A stretch of 26,835 bases of DNA from a virus (Duplodnaviria > Caudoviricetes), in the IMG/VR virus record IMGVR_UViG_3300005077_000096, positions 1 through 26,835 of that record; one strand, 5' to 3'. The number at the start of each line of letters is the position of its first letter. Position 1 is the first letter of the stretch. A model generated the notes under the pieces. The model did not search any database, was not told where the DNA came from, and saw only the letters and a program-made list of their open reading frames with translations. This document shows, piece after piece, positions 6,926 to 25,388 of this stretch. The position numbers and the translations under genes are program-made.

Positions 6926-9900
6926 ATGCCTATCTATCGCGTACAAGGTCCCGACGGTAAAATTTATAGAGTGGAGGGGCCAGAAGGCGCTTCCGAAGAG
7001 CAGTTAATCCAAGCCGTTCGTGCACAGTATCTTTCGCAACCCGCACAAGAAACGCCCACAGAAAAGACCGGTTTTGGCGCTGCACTGCGCTCAGGTTTTG
7101 AAGGGCTCAAGGGCGATATTGGCGCTATCGGTGCCGGGCTTGGAGTAGAAGGCGCTGAAGAATACGCACGCGCACAGCAGGAAAAAGCTGCTCAGGCGTA
7201 CCAGATGCCTGAATTCACAGAGGCACCGATTGAATACATCAAAGGTTTGGCCGGGCAGTCTCTCCCGTACATAGCCGCTCCCTTGGCTGCCGGTGCAGCG
7301 GCTATGGGCTTGGGCCCTATTGCTGCCGGTGCTGCCACAGGTTTGACGTCTCTTGCACAGTTTACGGGTTCAAACGTAGGCCGCCAAATTCAAGAAGGCG
7401 CCACAGGCGAAGATCTTGGGCTGGGCAGAGCAGCACTGGCCGCAGTTCCTCAAGCTGCGTTGGACGTGGTTAGCTTTAAAGCCGCTCCGCTGATCCGTAA
7501 CATTTTTAAAGCAGCCGGTAAAGAACTCACAGAAACAGCGGCTGAGAACATCGCCAAGCAAGGTCTTACTAAAACTGCGCAGGACTACGTCTTTTCTACC
7601 GGTAAGGCAATGACCGCCGAAGGCTTGACCGAAGCAGGTCAGCAGCTTCTTGAACGCGCTCAAGCTGGTTTGGCTTTGACAGATGAAGCTGCCCGTGATG
7701 AGTATTGGGATAGCCTGTTTGGTGGCGCACTGCTTGGCGGTGTATTGGCCGTGCCGGGGCGTGCCGTTGAACGTTCTGGTGAGAAGCGTCGCGCTGAAGC
7801 CCTTGAACAAGAAGCCGCCGCTAAAGAACAAAGACGCATTGCTGCCGAGGAAGAAGCTGCAGCAGCGCAGCCAACATCGCCTGAGTACGCTACACAGGTA
7901 AAGTCGCAGTACGATGCGTTTGTAGAACGTGAGCGCGCACTTCGTGAGATCCTTAAAGCTAAGCTTGCCCCCACGGATTTGGCAGGGCGTGAAGACAAAC
8001 GCAATGCAAAACGTGAGCTCAAAGAACTTCAACAATCTCCTGAGTACAACGAGACTGTAAAAGAATACGCCAAACTGCGTAGCAGAGGAGCGTTTGGTGG
8101 TGTCGGACCCGCGGCGCCTGTCGCGGCGCCTACTGTTGAGGGACAGCTTGAAGGTTTTGAAGCTCCCGGTACCATGGCTGTTGAAGCGCCTATTGATGAG
8201 GCGCGTTTGAATGAGCAACGTACCAATTTACTGACGAACTATCGTCAGCTTCAAGCTTTGGTACAAAGCGAACGCGAGGTCAAATTTGATTACGCGCAGC
8301 GTGGCGACATAGACGCTATCACCCGCACCAACAACCGCTTACAGCAACTTGACGCTGAACTCAAAGCGCTGAGTAAAGAAGCCAAGACTCTGGGCTTGAC
8401 AAAGGCCGATCTTGAAGGCGGTGTCGAGGCCAACCGTGAACAGCTGGAGAGCTTGCTGGCAGAAAACCGCGCCAAGCTCAAAGCGCTTACAGAAGACTCT
8501 AAAAAATACAGCGAGAAAAAAGTTGACGCGCTTGTAGCCGAGTCTCAAGAACTTCAACAACGCTTGAATGAGTTGGCACAAACCTCCTTGCCTTTGGGCG
8601 CTGCCATCAACTTGCCTGAACGCCGTGCACGAGAAGAAATGCAAGCGCGCACTGAAACGCTTGAGGCACAAGGCCAGCCCCGTGCAGAGCAAGAAGATCT
8701 TTTTGCGCAAGAACAAGCTGAGGGTTATGAGCAGGCTCGCAAAGAGCAAGCGGTTGAAGAGCCCGAAATCCAAGCGCTTTTGCGTCAAGCGGGGTTTGCT
8801 GAAAAAGGTGAAGAGCCTACGGCTGAAGGGTACTATGCGTCTGCTGCGCTTGGCGCAACTCGCCAAGAACTCGAGGGCGTGCCCCAAGAAGAGCGTTTTA
8901 TTTATACCCAGCCTGAACGGCCTACAGGCGCGCGTCGTGTTCCTGCAGATCAAATCCGTTTGTTTCCCGACGCAGGCGCGGCAGAAGTACCCCGACTGGA
9001 TGTTCTTGAAACGCGAATCAATTCGTTACTGGCGTCAGACGTTGACGAGAATACTTACAATTTCTTACGCCGTCTTGAAGGTGTTTTGCCCGCTACAGAT
9101 CAAGATCTGGAAGGCGGAAGTTTCTATCAGGCAGTGGGCGACACACTAACCCGCATCGAAGACAACCTTCGCGAACGTGGTGTGGAAACCACATTCTACG
9201 GTGCTCCTGAAACTGCACGCACAAGCGGTATAGCTTCGGCGCTGATTGATCCAAGAGAAGCCCAGTACCGCGAAGAAAAACCTGAAGCGTCAGCGAGAAA
9301 ACTCAGGGCGGATATTCAACGCACGGGTGTGCAACGCGGTGTTTCTCCAGAAGAGTTTGAACGCACCACAAAAGCGCGTGGCGCAGATGTGACTCGCCGT
9401 GAGCCTATTGAACGCGCTGGTCGTAAGCCTTTACTCACACTGCCAAAAGACAGCGCACCGATCATTGATGAGCGGTTGGCGGAGTTTGTGCAACGCCGCA
9501 CCGAAGGGGAGCGTGTGGCTGCCGCTGAGGCAGAAGGCCAACAAGAGCTGTTTGCGCAAGAAGGTGTTGCAAAAACGAGACAAGCTTTCTTGGCAAAACA
9601 ACGCGCCGGAAAAGCCAAGGCTGGGCCAAAAGTTTCTGCAGCTACGCAAGCTTCTCGTGAACGTACCGCAAAGGACGTCAAAGAGCGCAAAGAAGCCGCG
9701 GACAAAGCGGTTGCCAAAGCCAAACAAACCCAGCGTCAGCTTGAAGCGCGTTTTGGTGATACAGAAAAAGTTGAGCGCCGTGCTTTTGCCCAGATCTCAG
9801 ACGCTGAACGGCGCGCACGTGAGCGTGGAACAGATCTCGTGACAGCTGCACAAAAAGATGTTGCAGAGAAAGACCCCGTCAAGACACTGGCTGGACTCCA

Positions 9901-12900
9901 AAATAAAGAAAAAGCCCTTCGTAGAAAAATCAAATCGGGCATTGAGCGCAGCCGTAGTTTCTTGATGCAGAACACCGAGAAACTCTTGGGTACATACACG
10001 CGCTTGAACGACGCGTACTGGAAAAATCCTAGTCCAGCAGCCGCAGAAAAAGTTGAGCAAGCTCGCGCTGCCTATGACGACGCAGTCAACCGCCTGAAGT
10101 ATCAAGAAAACATCATGTGGGTTGGCGCCGGCAAAGACGTCGAAGAACTGCAAAATACGATGGCGCGAATTGAAGACTTGCGCGAGGGTTTGGAATCCGG
10201 ACGCTACATCCGTCTTGAAGACCGCGAAACAGCCGGCGCACCAAAAGGCACAACCGTAACGCCCAAAGCACAGGCACGTGCGCAGGAAGCAAAACGCGCT
10301 AAAGAATCTCTTGCTGCAGTGCAAAAAGAAGGGCCAGTGCCAACAACTTCTGGTGAAGCGTTGACCCGTTCGCAAGTTGCCAAAGCCCGCAAACCACAGA
10401 AAACAACGTACCAATCCAAGGGCGTGTCCGCAGCTACCGATGAAAACGCTGATCGCATTTTGGAAAAGCTCAAAAAGACCGGCAAGATCACAATGTCGGA
10501 AGCCAACAAAGTGCCGTTTGAGCTACTGCCCAAGAGGGTGCAGAACCAGCTACTGGTATCTCGTGCAGCCGCAAGAGACGCTAAGAAAGCCGCGGCGCTG
10601 ACTGGAGGGCGTATTGTTGACGTGGGCGATGCGGATATTGAGTATTCAGTAGGCACAGTGGAAGAAGGTATCACTGCAGCTGACGTCAACAAAGAACTCG
10701 ACCAAGCCATGGGCGAGAAGGACGTCGTGAAAGGCAGTAACGGCAAAGTGCGCGTGTATAACAGCGTGGCTGACTTCGTTGCTGAGAACCCTGAGTACGC
10801 TGGCAAGATTCGCCCTGACGCTCGTGCGTTTGTGCAAGATGGCAAGGCTGTTTTGTTTGGCGAGAATATCGGTCAAGGTCAGGCGCTGGCGGTACTGCTG
10901 CACGAAGTGGGTGCTCACGTAGGTATGCGTGGCACAATGCCAACCGCTCAGTACAACGCCCTTGTGCAGACAATCAAGAGCTGGGCTAAACGCACAGATA
11001 ACTCTTTGGAAGCTCGTATTGGGCGTGCCGCCATGGCACGTGTTGAAGCTGCCCAGACACCTGCAAATCAAGTCAACGATGAACTGTTGGCCTATGCCAT
11101 TGAAGAAGCCACGCTTGCCGGTGTGAACCCCGATGCCAACGCTACAGTTGTAGAGCGCTTCTTGCGCATGGTGACTAATGCGTTTAACAAAGTGCTTCGC
11201 ACATTTGGCTTGAAGGGTAAGGACGTCAATCCTGTTGACTTGGTCAATATGGCCTACGGCGCAGCCAAGCTTGAGCTGACTATGCCGAATAAACCCGCAA
11301 AGGTTTCAGATGGTGAAATACTGTTCTCAGTAAAAGCACCCAAGAGCATGATCGTTGGCAGTAGTCCAAGCGTGTTGTCGAACATTCGCGGTAACGTATT
11401 TGGTTTGGCAGGACGTGTGCAGTATCTGGACAACCTTGCGGCTGTTGAAGAAACCGTGCGCCGTGGGTTGGGCGCAGGACAAATCTCAGACGCTGAAGCT
11501 ACGCAGACAAACTACAACTTGCGCATCATGGGTATGGCCAACAACTTTGTCGGTCAAGCAGCCACGCACGGTCCGATTCGTCGCGTTAAAACCAAAGAAG
11601 GCGACTACGTCTACCGAAGCGAAAAAGGCACGAACTTAGGTACTATTGCTGAAGCACTGCGCGAAGCAGAGGGCGTATTCCCAAATACAGAAACCGCGTT
11701 TACGGTATATCTGGCTGGAAAGCGTGCCAAGAAAGTTGGTTGGGAAAAACTCAACCGCACAAAACCTGCCGAAGCCAAAGCTGAGTACGACGCGGTGATG
11801 CAAAAGCTCGCTTCAAACGCCCAAGCTAGAGATGCCTTTAAAGCTGCCGAAGATGCTTGGCGCGAGGTTAACAATAATAACCTTGACTTCTTGGTTGCAA
11901 CAGGTGAAATGAAGCCTGAGCTTGCCGCAACGCTCAAACAGCAAAGTTACGTACCGTTCTTCCGTATGAATGGAGATGAGGTGCAGCTCTTTAGTGAGGA
12001 CGAAAAGATCCGCACGATTGGCAACATCAAGGATCAGCCGTTCTTGCGGGAGCTCGTAGGCGACGACAGCACCATTCAGCCTTTCTTCACAAGCGCCATG
12101 CGTAGCATTGCGTTGCTGACCCGTATGGGCATGCGTAACGCGACCGTCAAGGATACTGCCTACATGCTCAAGAAATTGGGTATGGCCAGTGCAATCCGTC
12201 AAGGTCCGAAACCGTCTGGCGCTGAGTACATGGCGTTTAAACAGGATGGCATCCCCATGTACGTCAAGATCGACAATGACGCGTTTGGCGTACCTGCTGA
12301 GCTTGTGATCAAAGGGCTTGAGGGCATCAAGACAACGCTTCCTGCAGCGATCCGTTTGATGGGTTTGCCTGCAGATTTGTTGCGCTACACCGTAACCCGT
12401 ATGCCGACATATGCGTTGCGTCAGGTTATCCGTGATCCTCTGTCGATGTTCATGACAGGTAACATGAACTCAACGCCTATCGTGTCTTCGATAAAGCAGC
12501 TCATCAGTATGCAAGGCGGCAAGTCTCCTACTGAAGCGCAGTTGATGCAGTCTGGTGTGATCAACAGTAACATTTTCACTGGTGATAGCCGCGACCTTGA
12601 TATTTTTATGCGCAAAATCCTCAACGGGGATAGCACATGGACCAAGGCGCTCTCCAGACTGGACGCACTAGCTATGCAGGGTGATGCTGCATCGCGTGCA
12701 GTACTCTGGGAAGAATCCAAGAAGCAGGGCTTTACAGACATCGAAGCAGACTTGCGCGTGTTGGAGTCCATGAACTTCTCACGCCGCGGACTGTCGCCCA
12801 GTATGCTGGCGCTTAACCAGATGATCCCGTTCTTTAACGCACAGGTTCAAGGTCTGGACGTGCTGTACCGCTCGATGACAGGCAAAATGCCCTACGCACA

Positions 12901-13852
12901 ACGCCTTGATATGCAGAAGAAAATGCTACAGCGCGGAGCCCTTGTTGCCGCCATGAGCGTTATCTACGCAGCGTTTATGCAGGACGACGAAGCCTACCAG
13001 AAGGCAACGCCTGAAGAGCGCAACATGTACTGGTTTGTGTACGTTCCCGGAACAGAGAAGCCTTTGCGTGTGCCAATTCCTTTTGAAGTTGGTTACATGT
13101 TCAAAGCTTTGCCTGAGATGCTGTACAACGTGATGGCCGGCGACACTACCACGAAGCAAGCCGCTCAAGCGTTTGGTGCGTTTGTGAAGAACTCCACACC
13201 GCTCAGTATTCCCCAAGGCGTAAAGCCGCTGATTGAGATTGCGGCCAACAAGAACTTCTTCACTGGCTTGGATATTGAGTCTCAGGCAGAGCGTCGCCTC
13301 ACTCCTGAAGAGCGCGTGCGTCAGGATACAACGGAGTTCAGCCGCATACTGGGTCAGGCTGGGGTTTTGTCACCTGTTCAGATCGAGAGCTTGATTCGTG
13401 GTTACACCGGATCTATGGGCGTGTTGTTTGCATCGCTTGCCAACCCGATCCTGCGTCCGTTTGGTGGTGAAGAGCGCCCCGAGGGACCGGCCAAAGAGTG
13501 GACTGACTCGCCACTTATTAAGTCAATGTTCCAGCCTGTGGACGGCAGAGGTCTCAAGCAAGCTGCGTACGACATTGTTGAAGAGGCTCAGCAAGCGTCA
13601 CAGACGTACAAGGAAATGCTCAAGCAAGGCCGCCGTGCAGACGCGCAAGCGTTTTTGCAGGAGAACCTCAAGGCTGTACAAGCCGGAGCGCCTGCCGGTC
13701 AGTTCCGTCAACAGATGGGTGAGTGGGCACGCTTGAAGCGACAAGTCGCGGCAAGTAAAGTACTGACCCCTGAGCAGAAACGTGACCAGATCAAACAGAT
13801 CACGGCGCTTGAAGACCGCTACGCCAAGCTGTTGATTGAGAGTCAGCGATAA
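6926..13852 (+). CDS. Giant polyvalent internal virion/ejection protein, 2308 aa, with zincin-like metallopeptidase motif and C-terminal LPD38-like domain
   Basis: GGAGG RBS. N-terminal Gly/Ala hydrophobic helices and a long charged region. VLLHEVGAHVGM at ~10892-10927 with downstream DELLAY. C-terminal NFSRRG..IPFFNAQVQGLD..EERNMYW..LRVPIPFEVG..KPLIEIAANKNFFTG pattern (~12770-13420) matches my recollection of LPD38. Confidence 0.8.
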   Translation: MPIYRVQGPDGKIYRVEGPEGASEEQLIQAVRAQYLSQPAQETPTEKTGFGAALRSGFEGLKGDIGAIGAGLGVEGAEEYARAQQEKAAQAYQMPEFTEAPIEYIKGLAGQSLPYIAAPLAAGAAAMGLGPIAAGAATGLTSLAQFTGSNVGRQIQEGATGEDLGLGRAALAAVPQAALDVVSFKAAPLIRNIFKAAGKELTETAAENIAKQGLTKTAQDYVFSTGKAMTAEGLTEAGQQLLERAQAGLALTDEAARDEYWDSLFGGALLGGVLAVPGRAVERSGEKRRAEALEQEAAAKEQRRIAAEEEAAAAQPTSPEYATQVKSQYDAFVERERALREILKAKLAPTDLAGREDKRNAKRELKELQQSPEYNETVKEYAKLRSRGAFGGVGPAAPVAAPTVEGQLEGFEAPGTMAVEAPIDEARLNEQRTNLLTNYRQLQALVQSEREVKFDYAQRGDIDAITRTNNRLQQLDAELKALSKEAKTLGLTKADLEGGVEANREQLESLLAENRAKLKALTEDSKKYSEKKVDALVAESQELQQRLNELAQTSLPLGAAINLPERRAREEMQARTETLEAQGQPRAEQEDLFAQEQAEGYEQARKEQAVEEPEIQALLRQAGFAEKGEEPTAEGYYASAALGATRQELEGVPQEERFIYTQPERPTGARRVPADQIRLFPDAGAAEVPRLDVLETRINSLLASDVDENTYNFLRRLEGVLPATDQDLEGGSFYQAVGDTLTRIEDNLRERGVETTFYGAPETARTSGIASALIDPREAQYREEKPEASARKLRADIQRTGVQRGVSPEEFERTTKARGADVTRREPIERAGRKPLLTLPKDSAPIIDERLAEFVQRRTEGERVAAAEAEGQQELFAQEGVAKTRQAFLAKQRAGKAKAGPKVSAATQASRERTAKDVKERKEAADKAVAKAKQTQRQLEARFGDTEKVERRAFAQISDAERRARERGTDLVTAAQKDVAEKDPVKTLAGLQNKEKALRRKIKSGIERSRSFLMQNTEKLLGTYTRLNDAYWKNPSPAAAEKVEQARAAYDDAVNRLKYQENIMWVGAGKDVEELQNTMARIEDLREGLESGRYIRLEDRETAGAPKGTTVTPKAQARAQEAKRAKESLAAVQKEGPVPTTSGEALTRSQVAKARKPQKTTYQSKGVSAATDENADRILEKLKKTGKITMSEANKVPFELLPKRVQNQLLVSRAAARDAKKAAALTGGRIVDVGDADIEYSVGTVEEGITAADVNKELDQAMGEKDVVKGSNGKVRVYNSVADFVAENPEYAGKIRPDARAFVQDGKAVLFGENIGQGQALAVLLHEVGAHVGMRGTMPTAQYNALVQTIKSWAKRTDNSLEARIGRAAMARVEAAQTPANQVNDELLAYAIEEATLAGVNPDANATVVERFLRMVTNAFNKVLRTFGLKGKDVNPVDLVNMAYGAAKLELTMPNKPAKVSDGEILFSVKAPKSMIVGSSPSVLSNIRGNVFGLAGRVQYLDNLAAVEETVRRGLGAGQISDAEATQTNYNLRIMGMANNFVGQAATHGPIRRVKTKEGDYVYRSEKGTNLGTIAEALREAEGVFPNTETAFTVYLAGKRAKKVGWEKLNRTKPAEAKAEYDAVMQKLASNAQARDAFKAAEDAWREVNNNNLDFLVATGEMKPELAATLKQQSYVPFFRMNGDEVQLFSEDEKIRTIGNIKDQPFLRELVGDDSTIQPFFTSAMRSIALLTRMGMRNATVKDTAYMLKKLGMASAIRQGPKPSGAEYMAFKQDGIPMYVKIDNDAFGVPAELVIKGLEGIKTTLPAAIRLMGLPADLLRYTVTRMPTYALRQVIRDPLSMFMTGNMNSTPIVSSIKQLISMQGGKSPTEAQLMQSGVINSNIFTGDSRDLDIFMRKILNGDSTWTKALSRLDALAMQGDAASRAVLWEESKKQGFTDIEADLRVLESMNFSRRGLSPSMLALNQMIPFFNAQVQGLDVLYRSMTGKMPYAQRLDMQKKMLQRGALVAAMSVIYAAFMQDDEAYQKATPEERNMYWFVYVPGTEKPLRVPIPFEVGYMFKALPEMLYNVMAGDTTTKQAAQAFGAFVKNSTPLSIPQGVKPLIEIAANKNFFTGLDIESQAERRLTPEERVRQDTTEFSRILGQAGVLSPVQIESLIRGYTGSMGVLFASLANPILRPFGGEERPEGPAKEWTDSPLIKSMFQPVDGRGLKQAAYDIVEEAQQASQTYKEMLKQGRRADAQAFLQENLKAVQAGAPAGQFRQQMGEWARLKRQVAASKVLTPEQKRDQIKQITALEDRYAKLLIESQR

Positions 13853-14019
13853 AACCAAACGCCAAGCTTGCCGTTCTTGATACAGAAGACGGCCTTGGCG
13901 CGGAAGATACGCAGTTCGTGAGCGCGAGATAACCCCTCGCGTCTTACTTCTTCGAGGTTAAGGGCAGGGACGAAAAACCCCTGCCCCTTCTCAGTCTTCT
14001 CCCATGGATAGTTCTTCAT
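13843..14019 (-). CDS. Small phage protein, 58 aa (missed by ORF track), possible DNA-binding
   Basis: Manual translation: MKNYPWEKTEKGQGFFVPALNLEEVRREGLSRAHELRIFRAKAVFCIKNGKLGVWFYR*. The YPW..G.xFFVP...GVW pattern is familiar from small phage proteins. It fills the otherwise empty gap between the primase and the giant gene. Confidence 0.75.
   Translation of the reverse strand: MKNYPWEKTEKGQGFFVPALNLEEVRREGLSRAHELRIFRAKAVFCIKNGKLGVWFYR
13962..13986. other. GC-rich inverted repeat at the convergence of the two gene blocks (possible weak terminator/pause)
   Basis: gggcaggg (13962-13969) / ccctgccc (13979-13986), 8-bp stem and 9-nt loop. No clear U-tract on either strand; lies inside the 58-aa ORF. 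Confidence 0.3.
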
Positions 14020-16993
14020 CTACCGTAGAGATGTCTTGCGTGATACGAAGTGCACTGACTCGCATGACTGGGGCCTTGGTGCCTGTGGTCATGTTCTTCT
14101 GAACAGTATCCACATTGTGTTGCGCTTTCATGCCTTTCATGAAGTCCGCGTATCCAAAACCATACTTGGCACAGAACGCACGCATGGCCGCAACCTCGAT
14201 GTAGAAGTCAATGTGCCCGGGGGTCTTGCCCTTTTCCACACGCCCTGCGATCTCAGTACGGGTCAGCGACTCATCCTTGCCGTCATCACGCTCAAGGCCA
14301 CCCAAGGAGAACTCGGGACGAATCTTGGAGATGGTGTAGTCAACGAAGAGTAGCTTGCCGTACTTCTCGCGGATGTAAGCGTTGAGGATGTCCTTGGCTG
14401 AGCGGCGACCCTTGCGTGTGTACTCACGCACGCGAAACACCATGCCTTTGTAGACCTCAAACAGATCGGACAGCGGCAGGTCAATCAAACCCGTGTGCTT
14501 ACTGCTCAACAAGATACCGGCCATCATACTAGCGGCAACGCCTGCCATCCAGAAACGCTCATCGTTGGACGCATCCAAATCTTTGTAGCATTTCTGAAGC
14601 ATCTTACGCGTACGAACAGCGATATCTGGACAGTGGTCGACCAAGTACTGAACGAAAACGGGAGCGGCTACTGCGCAGTTCTTCTCCAGTAACGCAAGCG
14701 TTTCCAGCTCGTCATCTGCCCAGACAACTTCCTGCTCCATGGACAGCTCCAGCACCCGGCGCAGTTCACCTTCAGAGGAGTGCGTACGCAAGCCAGTCAA
14801 GTAGTCAACCGCCTGTGTATTGGATGACACCATAGCAATTGAGTTCCAGTACGTGCTGTTGATACGCTCGCGGTTGGCACCGGACTCCATACGCTCCTTG
14901 CCCTTACCTTCAGAGACATCGAACAAGAAGCTAGGCAACCACTCCATGTCAGAGTCGCGGTTGTTCTGGGTAACCTCGTCCACAATCAACGGCTCGCTGT
15001 TGAGCAAACCAAGACGGTGTGTCATTGTCACGCCAGATGTCTGACGGCTAACCATGTAGGGCTTGCCGCGACCCCAAAACGCTGAACCAAGCAGCATGCC
15101 CAAGGACTTGCCAGTACCGGAACCAGTCGACGCATAGTGAAACGTAACGCCTGCCATGCCAGTAAAGCGCATGAGGGGAGCAGCGCAAGCCGTCAAAAAG
15201 ATAGACAAGATGTCGTAGCGTTTCTTTGCCACCATCATGCGCATAACTTTTTGCCAGTTCTCCAGCGAGCCAACAGGCGTAGTAGCCAAGTTCAAGTTGT
15301 CCAAGTCAGCCATGGGCACAACCATCTGAGGCTTACCCTTGACGAAAATCTTGCCAGCATGAACAAAGGAGTCGTCATCTTGCCAGCCGTAGTGTTCTGG
15401 AACGCGGGTCACGTGGTTACTGGTGCTGGCGTCATTCACACAAGCGCGGACATACTCGAACAAGTTCTTGTCGTTGCCTGAGCCAAAGAGCGCCACAACG
15501 TTTTGCATGGCCAGAGTCTTCACGGTCTCATCTTTGCTAACCACAGCTTTTTGCGGCAGCATGATTTCCTCCACGCCGTGGGGACGGCAGTAAGCCAGTT
15601 GAATCTGGTGTTCCTTCTGAGTGCGCAGGATGCGTACTACAAACAAGTCGTAAGGCAGTAGCGGGATTTCCTTGGTGACCTTCTCACCGTCAGCGTCTTC
15701 GTCTTTCTTCTGCATGTACACGCCGCCTTCACGTCCGTAGCTGTAACCCCTTGGAGGTGGTGGGCGCAGGATAGTGTGGGTAGGCAACGCAACAGTTACC
15801 GCAGTTTCTGGATCGACATCCTCAAAGTTAACGTCCTCGTCTACTTGTGGCTTCGCGGGAGTTAGCTCGATTACTTTCTCGGTGTTGTCGGTTGCGAGCT
15901 CACGCCCAAGCATCAACGGGTTAGTGATCTTTCCAAAGTGAGGGCAAGATGTGCAGACACCCGGGTTCTCACTATCCATCTTGATGCACGGATACGGGCC
16001 TTTGATCTCGTCCCACTTGGTGGCCATGCGGTCACGGTCGTATGGATGCAAGTCAGAGAACTCGATGGCCGATTCCCAACCGTCAGCTTCGCAACACTTC
16101 GCCCATGACAGTAGCCCACGCCAGATAGGTTCCAAGCCGTCACGCGAGGGGTTGTCCAGATACGCTTTGACTTGACCACAACCGTTGCCCTGCTCAGACT
16201 TGAGCCAAATCGTTTTGAACGACGTGACGTTGTTAGCCATGAGGCGCTTGCTAAGGTCGGTGGCTTGGCCCTTCGGACGCTTACCTTCGAGCGTAAGTGC
16301 TTTCTTCTCTTCATACGATGGCCCCACGAGTTTTTCACGCACCACCTTGGCAAAGTCCTCAAACTTGAAGATGTCGCCCGAGTACATGAACTTGGAGCGT
16401 GTTTCACCACGCACCTTTTTACCAGCCTTGATACCGTTGTTTCGCGAATCCAGTGCCCGCATGAGACGCGCTGTATCAGAAGGCACAGCGGTGTCGATGT
16501 TCATCCCAACCTGAATCAGCAGGGACTTGAAGTTCTCAGCAACAACCTTCCAACGCTCGGCTTCGATATCCTCAGTTAAGGGCCAGTAGACGTGCACACC
16601 TGAACCTGAAGACATGAACCATGGGCGCCCTAAAGCACCGAGCCCTGTGTCCTCAAGCATCTTGAGCGTGGCTTCATACGCGAGCTTTGCAGACGGATAG
16701 TCCTTGGGTTTGATCTCACCTTGCTCGTTGGGTATATCCAGCTTGTGGTTGCAATCTAAGTCCAAGAAAAACGACCGCAGATACGTCGCGTCATCGGCAC
16801 TACGCTTCTCTTTGAATGTGGCCATGCCCACGTATGTGTCATAGCCCTTCTGCGTAAACTCCGCTAATTTCTGTCCAAACTCCTCGAAACTGTCAGTGCA
16901 GTAGTGTTCTTTTTTCTTTGATAGCTCAGCCGCGCAGTATTTGCCTTTACCTGCAGACGGCAGAACCACCGCTAGGAAATCAAGCGGTTGCAT
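13991..16993 (-). CDS. Primase-helicase fusion, 1000 aa: AEP (RepB-like) primase + Cys cluster + DUF927 + AAA+ (Cch/MCM-like) ATPase
   Basis: AEP motifs RSFFLDLD, SSGSGVHVYWPL and DTARLMR. Cys cluster CGQ...PYPC...CTSCPH. DUF927-like HYGWQDDDSFVH. Walker A GSGTGKS, Walker B PLIVDEVT, and GELRRVLEL arginine-finger-like motif. Confidence 0.85.
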   Translation of the reverse strand: MQPLDFLAVVLPSAGKGKYCAAELSKKKEHYCTDSFEEFGQKLAEFTQKGYDTYVGMATFKEKRSADDATYLRSFFLDLDCNHKLDIPNEQGEIKPKDYPSAKLAYEATLKMLEDTGLGALGRPWFMSSGSGVHVYWPLTEDIEAERWKVVAENFKSLLIQVGMNIDTAVPSDTARLMRALDSRNNGIKAGKKVRGETRSKFMYSGDIFKFEDFAKVVREKLVGPSYEEKKALTLEGKRPKGQATDLSKRLMANNVTSFKTIWLKSEQGNGCGQVKAYLDNPSRDGLEPIWRGLLSWAKCCEADGWESAIEFSDLHPYDRDRMATKWDEIKGPYPCIKMDSENPGVCTSCPHFGKITNPLMLGRELATDNTEKVIELTPAKPQVDEDVNFEDVDPETAVTVALPTHTILRPPPPRGYSYGREGGVYMQKKDEDADGEKVTKEIPLLPYDLFVVRILRTQKEHQIQLAYCRPHGVEEIMLPQKAVVSKDETVKTLAMQNVVALFGSGNDKNLFEYVRACVNDASTSNHVTRVPEHYGWQDDDSFVHAGKIFVKGKPQMVVPMADLDNLNLATTPVGSLENWQKVMRMMVAKKRYDILSIFLTACAAPLMRFTGMAGVTFHYASTGSGTGKSLGMLLGSAFWGRGKPYMVSRQTSGVTMTHRLGLLNSEPLIVDEVTQNNRDSDMEWLPSFLFDVSEGKGKERMESGANRERINSTYWNSIAMVSSNTQAVDYLTGLRTHSSEGELRRVLELSMEQEVVWADDELETLALLEKNCAVAAPVFVQYLVDHCPDIAVRTRKMLQKCYKDLDASNDERFWMAGVAASMMAGILLSSKHTGLIDLPLSDLFEVYKGMVFRVREYTRKGRRSAKDILNAYIREKYGKLLFVDYTISKIRPEFSLGGLERDDGKDESLTRTEIAGRVEKGKTPGHIDFYIEVAAMRAFCAKYGFGYADFMKGMKAQHNVDTVQKNMTTGTKAPVMRVSALRITQDISTVDEELSMGED

Positions 16994-20988: not shown

Positions 20989-21657
20989 TCAATCTCTCTT
21001 TTTGTTGAACTCACACGTCTTAACGACGCACCAGCCGCATAAGGGTGTGGGTTTTGGATTCCAAACGCCGTGCTCAAGCGCGGCTTCGATAAATGCTACT
21101 CGCTCTCTGTAACTCTGCCAACCAGTGTCAAACTGTTCGACCAACATATTGTCTTTGACCATGTCGTTCTTCACAAGAAACAAAAGGGCCGAGTTAACTT
21201 TGCGAATGTGCGGGAAGTGTGCAAACACCATGAGGGCCATGAGCTTGAGCTGGTCTAAATCAGGGTACTTGTTGTTACCCGTCTTGTAATCCGCCACCCA
21301 TGCGGTGAGCCCATCGTCATCAATAATCAACAAGTCAGCGATGCCACGAACCCAGACGTCTTTTGCGAACCAATCGCAGGGCTTGAGCTCATGTGTGAGC
21401 GCCATCTTGTATTCGGGCAGTTTCCTGCCCTGCTTCTTGAGGAGTGAGTCCACCACAGGTTTGAACTGTGCGTAGGCTTCAGGTATTGGCGTACCATCTT
21501 TTACGTACAGCTCAAGGGCCTTGTGTACCTCGTTGCCGTACCTTGTGGCTTCAGTCTCTTGGAAGGGGTACTTCTTCAAGACCTTGACCTCGTGATAGCG
21601 GCGAGGGCAGCCCTCATAATCTTTGAGGGAGGAATGAGACCAGACAACTTGCGGCAT
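20989..21657 (-). CDS. PD-(D/E)xK exonuclease, Cas4/RecB/AddB-like with 4-Cys cluster, 222 aa
   Basis: WSHSSLKDYEGCPRRY, GNEVH, RGIADLLII, VADYKTG, QLKLMAL and C-terminal CGWCVVKTC (1+3 Cys arrangement of Fe-S staple nucleases). Confidence 0.88.
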   Translation of the reverse strand: MPQVVWSHSSLKDYEGCPRRYHEVKVLKKYPFQETEATRYGNEVHKALELYVKDGTPIPEAYAQFKPVVDSLLKKQGRKLPEYKMALTHELKPCDWFAKDVWVRGIADLLIIDDDGLTAWVADYKTGNNKYPDLDQLKLMALMVFAHFPHIRKVNSALLFLVKNDMVKDNMLVEQFDTGWQSYRERVAFIEAALEHGVWNPKPTPLCGWCVVKTCEFNKKRD

Positions 21658-21985: not shown

Positions 21986-24004
21986 TTAGTTTTTAGCCAA
22001 ACCGTAGCGTTTGTGCACGCCGCCGTCTGCCGAGAGTGGTATTCCCGGCATGTACGTTGGTTCCTTTGTCATCTGGTCGATGACCCAAGGCAGTGCATCA
22101 TTCGCCTCACTTTCTGGTGCGATACAGATCTGTTCATCATGTACCGTACCTGCCACAAAGTACTTTTTAGAAGTACGTAGCATCCCGTCTGTCATCACAA
22201 TGCGCGCTGTGCCTTGTGTGACGTTGTTGGCAACCCTGCCAGCATAGAGCTTTTCACGCCCTTTATCGCCAGCAAAGTCCCATTGTACTCTCCCTTCTTC
22301 ATTTTTGGAACGCTTTAAATCTGGGTATAGAAGGCTCATGCCATTAGGCAGAACAATCTCTTCCTTACGGAACACCAGACACTTGTGCGTGTACTCTTTG
22401 CCACCATAGAGGCTGTACTCGATGAGCTCCTGCAAGAGACTCCAAAACGCCTGCACGGGGGCGGCAGTTGAGCGGTATTTGTCGATGATGGCCTTTGACG
22501 CTAGGCAGTGAATCAACAGCTCCTCGTCTGTGCAAGTGTGCGGTATCTCCACCATGCGATCCATATAACGGTCGTTATCAAGAAAGTCACGCACCTGCTT
22601 GGCAGTCACGCCCAGCTTCTTAGCGTCGTTCATTGTGTAGCGTAGGGGCGGTGCGCCCAGAAACCCTGTCAACAACTGCGCGGCAAAGGAACCCCACCCC
22701 AACTGGTAACCTGCACCAAGCAAAGCAGACTTTGCAGACTGGCGTTCAACTGGGTGGCTGTCTTTTGTCATGCCGGGTAAGTTAAACATCTGTGCGCCAA
22801 ACGCAGCGTATGGATCACCGCCTGCTCTGAAGATGTCAAGCATCTCGTCGTAATCCGCCAGCCATGCAAGCACACGCGGTTCGATCTGAGACAAGTCACC
22901 CACCACCAGCACGTGGCCATCTGGAGCCATGATTGCCTTGCGCAAGAAAGACCCACGCTTTAAGTTCTGCATGTTGATTGCAGAACCCTTTGCCGCCGTC
23001 CATCGTCCAGACCTAGCGCCGTAGTATGAGAGTGGGACAGGCAGTGTGCCGCGTGTGGCAATGTCGAGGAACCGCTGTGCACGTGTACGCTCTGAGGTTG
23101 ACTTCACTTTCATGCGTGCTTCGCACAATAGCGCCACGTCCTCGTTGTCACCATTAAGCATCGCTTGGAATAGCGCATCGTTCTTGGCAAACGCAAACGC
23201 CACACCTTCTGGGTTAGGCGTTTTCTTTGTAGGCTTCTTTTTCTTTGTCGGCGGTTCAACCCCCATGTCTCGTAGCACCTGTGCGAAGTGGTCGTTACTG
23301 GCCAGCATCCCATCGGTTACCTTGAGGCGAGCAAGCAGTCCTTCACGCTGTTCACGCTCTTTCACAATCGCATTGGCCAGCATGTCACTGTCAAGCACTA
23401 GCTGAGGGAACACAAACATCTTGAGCGTGAGGTCAACCAGCCGCAGTTCGCTAACAGGGTAGTCAGGAAGCAGACGTTTGAATATTTCAACGCACAGCCA
23501 TGTGTCGTGCTTACAGTACAGAGCGATCTGTTCTTCAACTTGAGGATGTAGCGCGTCAAGCACACCGTCAGTTAAACGCAGCTCGTTGCCCTTTGGAGGC
23601 AGGTTAAAGTCGTTGGCAAGTTGCTCAAGGCTGTTCTTCACAGCCAGCCCACGCTTGGCTCGAGCCATTGAGAGCGTATCAAATATGAAGGCTGGTTTGG
23701 CGTTGTAGTGCCAGCTCAGTATCGCACCGTCAAACATTGCGTTTTGTGCAAGGATCGCTGTGCGACTCCAGTCAATGCTGTCAACCCATTCTTGTACGTC
23801 TGCACCACTAACCCATTGTGGTCCGCCGGTGTTCTCTGTGCGTAGCGCATCATCAAGACGCAGCTCTTCCCAACTCAAGCCCCATGCTTTGAAGCGTGTG
23901 TCACGTATATAGCTTTCTGTGGTCAGCTTGCGTAGTGTGTATTCTTTTGAGCAGTAGGCAGTTTCAAAGTCAACGGCGAGTATTCTGTCAAACGGGGCGC
24001 TCAT
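21986..24004 (-). CDS. polA: Family A DNA polymerase with 3'-5' exonuclease, 672 aa
   Basis: Exo I LAVDFET, Exo II QNAMFD, Exo III YCKHD. GARSGRWT, NMQNL, motif A GDLSQIEPRVLA, motif B RQSAKSALLGAGYQ, motif C TVHDE. Confidence 0.95.
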   Translation of the reverse strand: MSAPFDRILAVDFETAYCSKEYTLRKLTTESYIRDTRFKAWGLSWEELRLDDALRTENTGGPQWVSGADVQEWVDSIDWSRTAILAQNAMFDGAILSWHYNAKPAFIFDTLSMARAKRGLAVKNSLEQLANDFNLPPKGNELRLTDGVLDALHPQVEEQIALYCKHDTWLCVEIFKRLLPDYPVSELRLVDLTLKMFVFPQLVLDSDMLANAIVKEREQREGLLARLKVTDGMLASNDHFAQVLRDMGVEPPTKKKKPTKKTPNPEGVAFAFAKNDALFQAMLNGDNEDVALLCEARMKVKSTSERTRAQRFLDIATRGTLPVPLSYYGARSGRWTAAKGSAINMQNLKRGSFLRKAIMAPDGHVLVVGDLSQIEPRVLAWLADYDEMLDIFRAGGDPYAAFGAQMFNLPGMTKDSHPVERQSAKSALLGAGYQLGWGSFAAQLLTGFLGAPPLRYTMNDAKKLGVTAKQVRDFLDNDRYMDRMVEIPHTCTDEELLIHCLASKAIIDKYRSTAAPVQAFWSLLQELIEYSLYGGKEYTHKCLVFRKEEIVLPNGMSLLYPDLKRSKNEEGRVQWDFAGDKGREKLYAGRVANNVTQGTARIVMTDGMLRTSKKYFVAGTVHDEQICIAPESEANDALPWVIDQMTKEPTYMPGIPLSADGGVHKRYGLAKN

Positions 24005-24306
24005 TGCAGTGTGTCCGATGATGGCGCCATCATTACGTCTGCGTCTTCCATCTGCGCTTCTTCCATCAACGACTCAGCCAACTCTGCGGCCATGCTGTAA
24101 AGATCCGCCACGTCCATCTTGTATGCGTGAACAGAGATCCTGCCTTCAGTTTCAACCAGCAACGCAACGCTCATACCGTCAACAATTGCAGCCATGGAAG
24201 CCAACTGCATGCGGGCAAGCAGTGTGCGTGTCTCTTCATCCATCTGTTCTACACGCTCGATGAGGGCTTTTGCAACAGCCCGTTCAGCATCACTTAAATT
24301 TGTCAT
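24001..24306 (-). CDS. Hypothetical protein, 101 aa
   Basis: GGAG RBS. ATGA overlap with the polA start. Fits the tightly packed operon. Confidence 0.7.
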   Translation of the reverse strand: MTNLSDAERAVAKALIERVEQMDEETRTLLARMQLASMAAIVDGMSVALLVETEGRISVHAYKMDVADLYSMAAELAESLMEEAQMEDADVMMAPSSDTLQ

Positions 24307-24595
24307 TTGCTTTCTCCAAAGTTTCGGTTACTTCGTGGATGTTTTGTTCATTGATAACTAACGCCACGCCGCCGCTATCTATGATTTTCTTGATGTTCAT
24401 TTCTTGCAGTGCAGTTGGCTTGTTCTTACCCGCCTTGCACTCAAAGGCAAAGAAGCTACCTTTGTAGCAACACACAATGTCAGGAACGCCGCTCGCACCG
24501 AAGCCTCCCGTAACCGGGTAGAAATAGTATGCGCCGTATGACTTCAGGATGTCTACAACTTTTTTCTTGACTTTCGATTCAGGCGTTGAGGCCAT
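24290..24595 (-). CDS. VRR-NUC domain nuclease (Holliday-junction resolvase-like), 101 aa
   Basis: TPESKVK...GVPDIVCC..G.FFAFECKAGKNKPTALQ...GGVALVINE is the VRR-NUC PD-(D/E)xK signature. AAGGA RBS. Confidence 0.9.
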   Translation of the reverse strand: MASTPESKVKKKVVDILKSYGAYYFYPVTGGFGASGVPDIVCCYKGSFFAFECKAGKNKPTALQEMNIKKIIDSGGVALVINEQNIHEVTETLEKANDKFK

Positions 24596-24610
24596 GTGTA
24601 TTCCTTGTGT

Positions 24611-24760
24611 TAGAGGTGGGGGGATATGCAGATTCCATGCCCCCCGTCATGGCCTGAAAGGTGTGCAAGTGGGTTAAACATCCTGACCGCCCCCACCTGC
24701 ACCGCACAAAGTTTCACATCTGCAAGGCTTAACAGTGTGCGGAATCATGGGCGGTCAAAT
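24611..24760 (-). ncRNA. Candidate structured non-coding element (multi-stem, pseudoknotted / switch-like RNA, or DNA origin)
   Basis: The longest non-coding gap in the window. Contains at least 7 complementary segment pairs of 5-9 bp (see findings). One helix is continuous only on the minus strand, via a G-U pair. Confidence 0.65.
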
Positions 24761-24943
24761 GACTGTGTTGAGTTTCTGTTCAGCCGTACGGACTGCCGCA
24801 ATCAGTACGTCTAGTTCTTTTGTATCTTGTGTCATTGTGTTGACGCGCAGATTCAGCGCGATGTCATCTAGGCTCTCCATCACGAACACGCTGTTACCGT
24901 ATTCATCGCGGGCTTCGATAGCGGTTATATGCAGTTGAATCAT
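24755..24943 (-). CDS. Hypothetical protein, 62 aa
   Basis: Start re-assigned to ATG 24943 (MIQLHITAIEAR...), with GAGGAG RBS and ATGA overlap with the DUF3310 stop. Confidence 0.7.
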   Translation of the reverse strand: MIQLHITAIEARDEYGNSVFVMESLDDIALNLRVNTMTQDTKELDVLIAAVRTAEQKLNTVI

Positions 24944-25170
24944 TGCCAAACTCCTCGCTCGATTTCTTTCAGCTTCTGCATGTAGTGCAGGCACTTCTCA
25001 GCGTCGGGGCTGTCTTTCTTGCCTTGGCGCATGCTGTACTTGATGATGTTACCTTTGAGGTAGCCAACAAACTCTTCGTGTGTCAGTACGGCTTGCATCA
25101 CGTGCCATGGTTGCACGTCCATTGTTTTGTAATGGTCACCGCCGTATTGCAATGCGTCTGCATTACTCAT
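24940..25170 (-). CDS. DUF3310 / SaV-like protein (T7 gp1.7-type nucleotide kinase family), 76 aa
   Basis: QYGGDHYK..VQPW...EFVGYLKGNIIKYSMRQGKK..D.EKC.HY signature. Confidence 0.85.
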   Translation of the reverse strand: MSNADALQYGGDHYKTMDVQPWHVMQAVLTHEEFVGYLKGNIIKYSMRQGKKDSPDAEKCLHYMQKLKEIERGVWQ

Positions 25171-25388
25171 TTCGCATCCTTTCGGTAAACAAGTTGACTG
25201 CCCATACGTGACGGGAGCTTGAGGTTGTCGTTGGCGCCGGGCCTGCCTTGATAGGGCTTCAATTCGTCCCCTTTATACAGATCGCGTGTCATCATGTCGA
25301 TCTTGCGCTTGGCGGGCATCTCGAGTTCGTGTCGAGTAACTACCGCTTTAGTTGTGAACGGCGCGGGTGGGATGGTGAATGTGCTCAT
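25167..25388 (-). CDS. Hypothetical phage protein, 73 aa
   Basis: ATGA overlap with the downstream gene. Contains YKGDEL...RPGAND..LPSRMG..LVYR, a pattern I recall from small proteobacterial phage proteins. Confidence 0.7.
   Translation of the reverse strand: MSTFTIPPAPFTTKAVVTRHELEMPAKRKIDMMTRDLYKGDELKPYQGRPGANDNLKLPSRMGSQLVYRKDAK

Follow-up and report, generated by a model that had tools for sequence, protein, structure and literature searches.

Phages are known to punctuate their messages between genes with sites for host nucleases, as in the early region of T7, where the RNase III sites are simple long hairpins. Another host enzyme, RNase P, has been connected with H-type pseudoknots and with the pseudoknotted tRNA-like structures at the 3' ends of TYMV and TMV RNA (PMC12710915, PMC11143913). 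According to the accessible portion of PMC12710915, RNase P RNA cuts loop 1 of an H-type pseudoknot only once an RCCA tail has been added; the TYMV tRNA-like structure is named there as a substrate, the T2/T4 gene 32 mRNA pseudoknot, which is followed by ACCA, is claimed as another, and the targeting of pseudoknots by RNase P in vivo is called an open question. In bacterial RNase P RNA there is a GGU, and the RNA gauges a distance of 12 bp from the elbow of the tRNA (PMC11143913). Autoregulation through elements such as the pseudoknot of T4 gene 32 or the operator of gene 43 is described in PMC3014915. Related in shape are the glmS ribozyme, with its double-pseudoknot core, a set of ornate orphan RNAs (raiA, ROOL, GOLLD, drum, skipping-rope), and the 8495 csRNA candidates from IMG/VR (PMC5737381, PMC10690425).

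The element reported here lies in a window of 26,835 nucleotides, the whole of a 26.8-kb IMG/VR virus record (IMGVR_UViG_3300005077_000096) that is estimated to be 41% complete; relatives whose records count as complete measure about 65 kb, and the carriers are uncultured phages of about that size. An earlier note, made from the letters of the window alone, had drawn attention to a 159-nt gap (24596-24754) between two minus-strand ORFs, 24755-24994 and 24290-24595, and this gap is confirmed. The upstream ORF encodes 79 aa from a GTG, has no family hit and is preceded by a DUF3310 gene (24940-25170, minus strand). Downstream, also on the minus strand, a VRR-NUC/Hjc-type endonuclease gene (24290-24595) heads a chain of overlapping or abutting ORFs that leads to polA, encoding a family A DNA polymerase (21986-24004), and to a PD-(D/E)XK exonuclease gene (20989-21657); the Shine-Dalgarno (SD)-like sequence of the VRR-NUC gene (24602-24606, minus strand) falls outside all conserved helices. 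The minus strand also encodes an SNF2 helicase and a DUF927 primase/helicase-like protein, and the plus strand carries large genes, including that of a 2308-aa LPD38 protein. The LPD38 gene and the gene of the DUF927 protein (1000 aa), at 6926-13852 and 13991-16993, stand tail to tail at the strand switch. For the small ORFs at 24755-24994, 24001-24306 and 25167-25388, Pfam and PHROG gave no hit, and tblastn against 80 polA-related loci gave no match. Among 50,697 isolated phage records there was no DNA match covering the element, and the nearest polA of an isolated phage (Rhizobium phage RHph_TM3_14A and kin) is about 30% identical; a relative of polA was not found in GTDB contigs. The public sequencing runs that best match the record sequence are aquatic and freshwater metagenomes, and no RNA run is among the matches listed; contigs from the DNA runs attest to presence and to nothing more.

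All features of the fold are on the minus strand, and read 5' to 3' they begin with the 5' strand of P1 (24749-24757), which starts at the stop codon of the upstream ORF. After a joiner of about 10 nt comes the P2 hairpin, whose 5' strand (24731-24742) comprises a longer helix (24742-24736) and inner pairs (24733-24731). The P2 loop contains a purine-rich internal loop, above it a 2-bp helix, P2b (24727-24728 with 24717-24716), that shuts the kissing loop, two unpaired pyrimidine-rich positions and the 7-nt 5' strand of P6 (24718-24724); the 3' strands of P2b and P2 together occupy 24702-24717. There follow the 5' strand of P3 (24692-24702), a helix that can be extended to 11 bp with one G-U, the 3' strand of P1 (24684-24692), a loop, and the 3' strand of P3 (24663-24673), which completes a 5' pseudoknot, P1/P3. 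The linker J3/4 (24653-24662) is pyrimidine-rich with a purine at its end, and leads to the 5' strand of P4 (24648-24652), to loop 1 (24646-24647; 0-6 nt in the family, with A first in 94/98) and to the acceptor-stem-like 5' strand of P5 (24640-24645). The 3' strand of P4 (24635-24639) comes immediately after it, and is separated by an unpaired A (24634), invariant in 98/98 sequences, from the 3' strand of P6 (24627-24633); 2-3 nt further on, the 3' strand of P5 (24618-24623) is followed by an unpaired A-C-C (24615-24617) in register with the end of P5, in the manner of a discriminator base plus CC. The architecture is thus that of a variable 5' pseudoknot (P1/P3), a hairpin (P2) and a conserved 3' H-type pseudoknot (P4/P5), with P6 formed by the loop of the 3' pseudoknot paired back with the loop of P2. 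P4 has 5 bp and adjoins P5 without a linker, the two lying next to each other like the T and acceptor arms of a tRNA.

With the TYMV- and TMV-type structures and the H-type substrates of RNase P, the element has in common an H-type acceptor-like arm, a single-stranded loop 1 at the would-be cut and, in many loci, an RCC-type tail right after the helix, and the TYMV-type arm length of about 12 bp is reached where P5 has 7 bp (63/98). It differs from them in being internal to a DNA-phage operon, with a gene 17-26 nt downstream in 59/85 loci and terminators in 2/98 in place of a 3'-terminal position, in carrying the full RCCA in only 16/82 loci, in having no T-loop or anticodon loop, and in adding the loop-loop helix P6 and an optional 5' pseudoknot; its cleavage by RNase P is a prediction. 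Like the T2/T4 gene 32 pseudoknot and the gene 43 operator (PMC3014915), it would be a phage mRNA pseudoknot that precedes DNA-replication genes, and it shares with the gene 32 pseudoknot two adjoining stems and a short loop 1; gene 32 is moreover the claimed RNase P substrate that is followed by ACCA. Unlike either, it is about 150 nt long with three pseudoknots, stands before several unrelated genes and never before a recognised ssb, is kept despite an intervening promoter and has no known protein partner. The glmS core is alike in the strand order of three core helices and in having a dispensable peripheral pseudoknot domain, but Rfam shows no sequence match, the junction lengths differ, none of the unpaired G positions counted is invariant, and in the element it is a hairpin loop that contains the first strand; no glmS gene was seen among the scanned neighbours. 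The orphan RNAs are likewise covarying, phage-borne and rich in pseudoknots in the accessible descriptions, whereas the element has no Rfam match, is smaller than ROOL or GOLLD and mostly lacks a promoter or terminator of its own. The T7 RNase III sites have the punctuating role that we propose here, in contrast to the pseudoknotted, tRNA-like form.

No description of the element was found in a body of full-text papers that are mainly free of subscription. Its core words are absent from PMC10085705, which mostly concerns metatranscriptome motifs, and in the readable tables of PMC10690425 there is neither a VRR-NUC entry nor a core word nor any of the contig ids tested, though a fragment of the element may be among the unnamed csRNA models of that paper.

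Homologues were first obtained from a locus search based on polA, in which the element was present in 31/80 loci; a search based on VRR-NUC gave 5/80. Among the matches listed, a pattern scan of viruses yielded members in 119/119 loci, a pattern that left the kissing helix free yielded 81/119, with new compensatory changes in that helix, and a metagenome scan yielded 8/119. A first, too loose pattern had found no member in 120 loci. The first GTDB scan likewise gave 0/97, one candidate (L415) being without a P6 partner, and the second gave 1/10, this member (L741) belonging to a beta-proteobacterial MAG, in which it lies on a contig of 6.5 kb that carries phage replication genes, a weak hint as to the host. 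Altogether there are at least 288 members among 805 loci, many of them one contig seen twice, and at least 160 distinct sequences, of which 98 are below 90% and 63 below 75% identity by our own alignment score; the family is larger than the sequences collected. Letters written into the search patterns (parts of P5, of the 3' strand of P4 and of P6) are over-conserved by construction. A covariance model built from 78 of the 98 sequences matches 98/98 at E < 2e-8, and the occasional second matches are weak, being lone hairpins without the 3' domain in two records (G007, G015) and a match at E 0.1 in a third (G013). The members accompany DNA polymerases that are only 34-40% identical to that of the window.

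In an alignment of the 98 sequences fitted to P1, P2, P2b and P5, with P4 and P6 outside the model, the 39 pairs of the fold are paired in 86.1% of cases against 69.2% after shuffling, and their covariation is 0.449 against 0.168 for shuffled and at most 0.141 for slid controls; both sides have changed in 30 of the 39. P4, which the earlier note had missed, is 96.5% paired with double-sided changes in 4/5 pairs, and the two P2b pairs, also missed, are present in 85 and 77 of 87 sequences, with C-G to G-C swaps in 7. The helices that correspond to P5 and P6 had been proposed correctly, being paired in 99.4% and 99.5% of cells, each with double-sided changes. The letters of P6 may resemble a Cas12a repeat stem and the anticodon stem of tRNA-Tyr, a likeness that is not used as evidence. 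Further supporting the core, an unfitted MAFFT alignment of 78 sequences has its 23 core pairs paired in 94.6% of cases against 82.6% shuffled, with covariation of 0.353 against 0.141, and the top pairs by APC-corrected mutual information, calculated with no structure assumed, belong to P5, P6, P4 and P2.

Since P1, P2 and P3 are too variable for alignment columns, they were assessed by an alignment-free test, on which P3 depends altogether because its shifting register spoils a column-wise count. In 39 sequences below 65% identity, with six short variants left out, the own strands of P1, P2 and P3 pair at -17.3, -13.7 and -18.0 kcal/mol, as against -10.0, -7.8 and -9.0 for permuted partners, and none of 20000 permutations paired as well for any of the three. 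The minus strand, which had been favoured for a single G-U pair, is indeed the right one: of 66 homologues, 47 have their stabler duplex on it for P1, 55 for P2 and 53 for P3. The 5' pseudoknot is dispensable: P1 is missing in five loci (L515, L520, L383, L534, L607), in two of which, L520 and L534, a GNRA-looped hairpin stands in for it, and P1 and P3 are both missing in L584. These short variants reduce the core to about 85 nt.

On this covariation it is nearly certain that the three-pseudoknot fold is real. The element is well supported, by its homologues, as a new RNA fold with three crossing sets of helices and about 100 diverged examples, and by the same comparison it belongs to an RNA family that is uncatalogued.

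The claim of a multi-pseudoknot element on the minus strand that matches no known family is therefore strongly supported, both by the covariation and by the negative Rfam result: no covariance model of Rfam 15 matched the window or either of two sets of 20 homologue loci at the gathering score, and beyond that threshold there were only chance hits (E 8.4 and 4.5). ARAGORN found no tRNA or tmRNA gene in the window, and the consensus has no T-loop or anticodon loop. Of the seven helices originally listed, all with complementarity in the window, the five that we call P1, P2, P3, P5 and P6 lie where they were placed and covary in homologous loci. The other two do not hold. Of the one drawn between 24652-24659 and the flanks of the kissing segment (24726-24728 and 24712-24716), the 5-bp part was computed at that place and the 3-bp part can be read in the sequence, and the 24673-24677/24729-24733 complementarity is likewise present, but neither is conserved; together they are paired in 35.8% of cases against 36.5% after shuffling, with 397/500 shuffles as high, and they are best regarded as chance. 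The conserved tail at 24617-24615 had also gone unnoticed.

The window sequence alone offers modest evidence and is mildly unusual. Its disjoint helices of at least 7 bp sum to 23 bp, a value equalled by 1/1000 shuffles; when the record was scanned in 667 sliding windows, one other reached it as well. Its nested folding is no better than that of shuffles (z -0.42 for the minus and -1.20 for the plus strand). The reality of the element is thus decided by the homologues and not by the single sequence. A conserved small ORF does not account for the gap, as at most 27/98 sequences are open in any frame and internal distances modulo 3 split 35/31/32; stop-codon readthrough was likewise rejected, an in-frame stop following inside the element. 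The window also has a perfect 9-bp alternative helix (24698-24690/24622-24614), the formation of which would disrupt P3, P1 and P5 here; as a family feature it is not conserved (p 0.79).

Of the 98 sequences, 63 have a P5 of 7 bp (six 8-bp cases being entered as 7 bp plus a G), 30 have one of 6 bp and the other 5 one of 5 bp; the first base of P5 is G in 78/98. The tail right after its last pair was specified in none of the search patterns. In the 82 loci without a promoter after the element it begins with a purine in 82/82, reads RC in 78/82, RCY in 75/82 and RCC in 60/82, and extends to RCCA in 16/82; a few bases further on, the background frequencies are 4% for RCY and 2% for RCC. Its register follows the end of the helix, both where P5 has 6 bp (16/19) and where it has 7 bp (58/60). 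The tail persists where no SD follows, is kept in 6/6 low-G+C loci without a promoter, and is mostly unpaired, its pairing with downstream RNA being 0.29 as against 0.31-0.37 for swapped tails. Pairing of the tail with the SD, with J1/2 or with the P1-P3 loop was considered, and no partner was found. The way it varies (A/G, C, C/U) is what pairing to a GGU that never changes should produce; a conserved partner of this kind was not found in cis.

In 16 loci the element is followed by a promoter or terminator, and there the whole fold is kept while the tail reads RCY in only 6/16 (Fisher p 7e-6, which is overstated because the 16 loci form about seven related clusters and the contrast is not independent). 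The G+C content of these loci is 0.43 as against 0.52, and the loss of the tail in them may reflect other hosts. As the fold is kept where the tail decays, it has a use for which the tail is not needed.

The promoter-like sequences were recognised by pattern in 14/98 loci, with 2 added on other evidence, and the terminators directly follow the fold in 2/98 (L327, L741); within 90 nt upstream, no promoter-like sequence was found in any of 87 loci. Eight loci with the element (L009, L014, L039, L288, L310, L378, L768, L799) and two motif-less relatives (L045, L071) have a near-consensus sigma-70 promoter-like sequence just upstream of VRR-NUC, and the position of its -10 box, mostly a few bases before the ATG, suggests that the VRR-NUC messages could be leaderless there. 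In L045 and L071 a terminator-like hairpin and a promoter-like sequence were seen by eye at the same border.

Among the loci long enough to show polA, 60/60 have it downstream and in the orientation of the element, an association inflated by those loci that were themselves found through polA; among those that show VRR-NUC, 77/78 have it downstream. The element had originally been described as preceding the VRR-NUC and polA genes, and its tie to VRR-NUC is in fact loose: VRR-NUC is the next gene in 63/98 and in the others this place is taken by polA, an exonuclease, DUF2201 or unknowns. The upstream side is mostly occupied by DUF3310, AAA and DUF2201 genes. By a heuristic choice of start codons, the next start is 17-26 nt from P5 in 59/85 loci, and the upstream stop falls within -9 to +14 of the start of P1 in 69/82. 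In four loci (L318 and L618; L304 and L336) the element stands between an AAA ATPase gene and DUF2201, or ahead of a different PD-(D/E)XK exonuclease gene.

Of 18 near-complete related records, picked from 47 that we had chosen, 13 have one strong copy of the element and 5 lack it. On a quick polA tree of 58 rows, from which 9 loci with short flanks and duplicates had been dropped, its presence needs 4 changes as compared with 18.7 for shuffled labels, a pattern that fits inheritance with losses. The gap of 28 motif-less loci that were inspected holds no comparable element, and in the same slot of motif-less relatives there was no tRNA (0/60 loci) and no Rfam RNA, known ribozymes included (0/16 loci).

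We suggest that the element is a tRNA-like site at which host RNase P would cut and thereby split the phage operon message, a reading to which we assign a probability of roughly 0.4. The fold would be transcribed within the early-to-replication message of the phage; P4 and P5 would stack coaxially into an acceptor/T-like arm of 11-12 bp, the tail would pair with the GGU loop of RNase P RNA, and P6 and P2 would supply an elbow-like surface. By analogy with the substrates in the accessible text of PMC12710915, the predicted cut is in loop 1, between 24646 and 24645, just 5' of P5. It would part the accessory genes from the replication genes, leaving an upstream product that ends in a pseudoknot, probably nuclease-resistant, and a downstream product whose paired, G-C-rich 5' end would lie about 20 nt before the start codon, probably protecting it and leaving the SD free. 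The 7-bp P5 of 63/98 sequences, together with the 5 bp of P4, fits the 12-bp tRNA ruler given in PMC11143913; an arm of this build with the tail in register is what RNase P recognises in substrates of the pseudoknot type. The element stands at a similar distance before unrelated genes (VRR-NUC, polA, exonuclease, DUF2201, unknowns), as a gene-independent processing signal would.

Several features count against cleavage by RNase P. There is no T-loop, the main docking site of the enzyme, and the full RCCA is infrequent. Pre-tRNAs usually have a U in front of the cut, whereas in the 98 sequences the position in front of the predicted cut is taken by C 64 times, by A 30 times and by U 3 times. 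In 39/98, loop 1 has only 1-2 nt, such that the leader bound by RNase P protein would fall in P4. The first tail position could be explained otherwise, a 3' dangling purine stabilising any helix, and the model leaves P2, P6 and the invariant G4/C4 and A-U pairs unexplained, as a simple hairpin with RCCA would serve. The lack of a tRNA or Rfam RNA in the slot of motif-less relatives, the missing element in 5/18 near-complete related genomes and the survival of the fold where the tail decays also speak against it. The fuller proposal, a new class of RNA in which three pseudoknots build a tRNA-shaped surface from a non-tRNA strand order, recruit RNase P and so separate and stabilise the replication message, falls just short of an even chance in our estimate. 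A bolder variant is that the glmS-like core may itself be a new catalytic or ligand-gated RNA.

Other readings of the same features are less probable. A replication protein (polA or a ssDNA-binding protein) or host RNA polymerase might bind the fold as an operator or elongation element and so set the expression of the replication genes. The steady presence of polA and VRR-NUC downstream, and of ORFs that in the window overlap or abut as far as the exonuclease, would suit such a role, as would the two-stem H-type layout of P4/P5, which recalls the gene 32 operator and precedes a spacer that is unstructured and poor in G (31 G in 800 nt), and invariant paired positions, which suggest groove readout. 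We nevertheless hold it unlikely, given that in 16/98 loci a promoter, sometimes with a terminator, precedes the next gene, so that the main downstream message would be without the element and yet the fold is intact; that the next gene varies, unlike the T4 gene 32-type leader of the binder's own gene; that the polA association is inflated; and that the RCY register goes unexplained. Another reading is a free tRNA-like RNA released from the operon, which might decoy or partner host proteins that sense tRNA or act in defence, or might be completed with CCA and aminoacylated. Such an RNA would account for the mimicry of the top half of tRNA and for the single copy per carrier genome, and the terminators right after the fold in L327 and L741 and the promoters after it elsewhere agree with release. 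It is distinctly improbable, however, as the tail decays precisely where the 3' end would be free (6/16), no promoter-like sequence lies within 90 nt upstream (87/87), and the fold overlaps the upstream stop codon and ends about 20 nt from the next start.

Processing of the message by a self-cleaving ribozyme of a new, small type is a shade less improbable than such a free RNA, and is suggested by the order of the core strands, P6a-P4a-P5a-P4b-P6b-P5b, which is that of P2.2/P2.1/P2 in glmS (PMC7125110; the first strand of P2 being our placement), by the ~85-nt core of the natural variants without P1, or without P1 and P3, and by the variety of neighbouring genes. In most of the known ribozyme classes a G serves as base or a C as acid (PMC8495972), whereas among the core positions counted a single A is the only unpaired base that never varies; none of the unpaired G positions is invariant, and 5/98 sequences have A in place of the loop C. 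The junction lengths and sequence are unlike those of glmS, and no Rfam ribozyme matched up to E 10. Less probable again is a riboswitch aptamer through which a nucleotide-related ligand would gate the replication genes. The compact multi-pseudoknot form, with conserved core and variable periphery, and the nearness of the SD in most loci are riboswitch-like, and pyrimidine-rich J3/4 and the 3' strand of P5 could pair with the SD. But the linker does not covary with the SD as an anti-SD would (p 0.20; p 0.45-0.77) and is just as rich in pyrimidines in loci that have no SD after it, the mean energy of the P5-to-SD hairpin is -1.8 kcal/mol, and terminators are few (2/98); with the 9-bp alternative helix of the window not conserved either, the expression platform that the riboswitch reading of the earlier note calls for was not found. 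Its other alternative, a ssDNA structure at a replication origin, to which a primer RNA may be added, is the least probable of all. Covariation cannot separate RNA from ssDNA (PMC5737381, accessible text), the helices pass with DNA energies too, and a single copy at the head of the replication module is where an origin might be placed. The element is always on the gene-sense strand, however, fitted between stop codon and SD; RNA energies give a larger strand asymmetry than DNA energies do; in L520 and L534 the place of P1 is taken by a GNRA-looped hairpin; complete relatives do without the element and have no gap left; and there is no skew switch at the site.

The RNase P reading gives a sharp and cheap prediction, namely that the enzyme cuts at a single specified bond and needs the three-base tail to do so. 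If it is true, RNase P processes pseudoknots inside mRNAs in nature, phages organise the expression of replication genes by tRNA mimicry, and the element is a natural and widespread mRNA pseudoknot targeted by RNase P, the point left open in the accessible text of PMC12710915. If it is false, the same constructs would serve for a new ribozyme or protein-binding RNA. In either case the natural minimal variants of about 85 nt are suited to crystallography or cryo-EM.

Some further features of the collected loci may be of use to others. In L255, a motif-less relative, a 209-nt gap about 4.3 kb upstream of polA contains a G6/C6 hairpin with no match to the family. One 23.9-kb contig (L775 and L800) carries the replication module twice in inverted orientation, which is likely an assembly artefact. 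Right after the element and without an SD, VRR-NUC and the family A DNA polymerase are fused in L220:4401-6998 (866 aa) and L333:1613-3091 (at least 493 aa). In three loci, L275:3266-4107, L277:2697-3586 and L278:2654-3537, inserts of about 0.85-0.9 kb split polA at one and the same residue (431 in the numbering of the window protein), as an intron, intein or homing-endonuclease insert would do.
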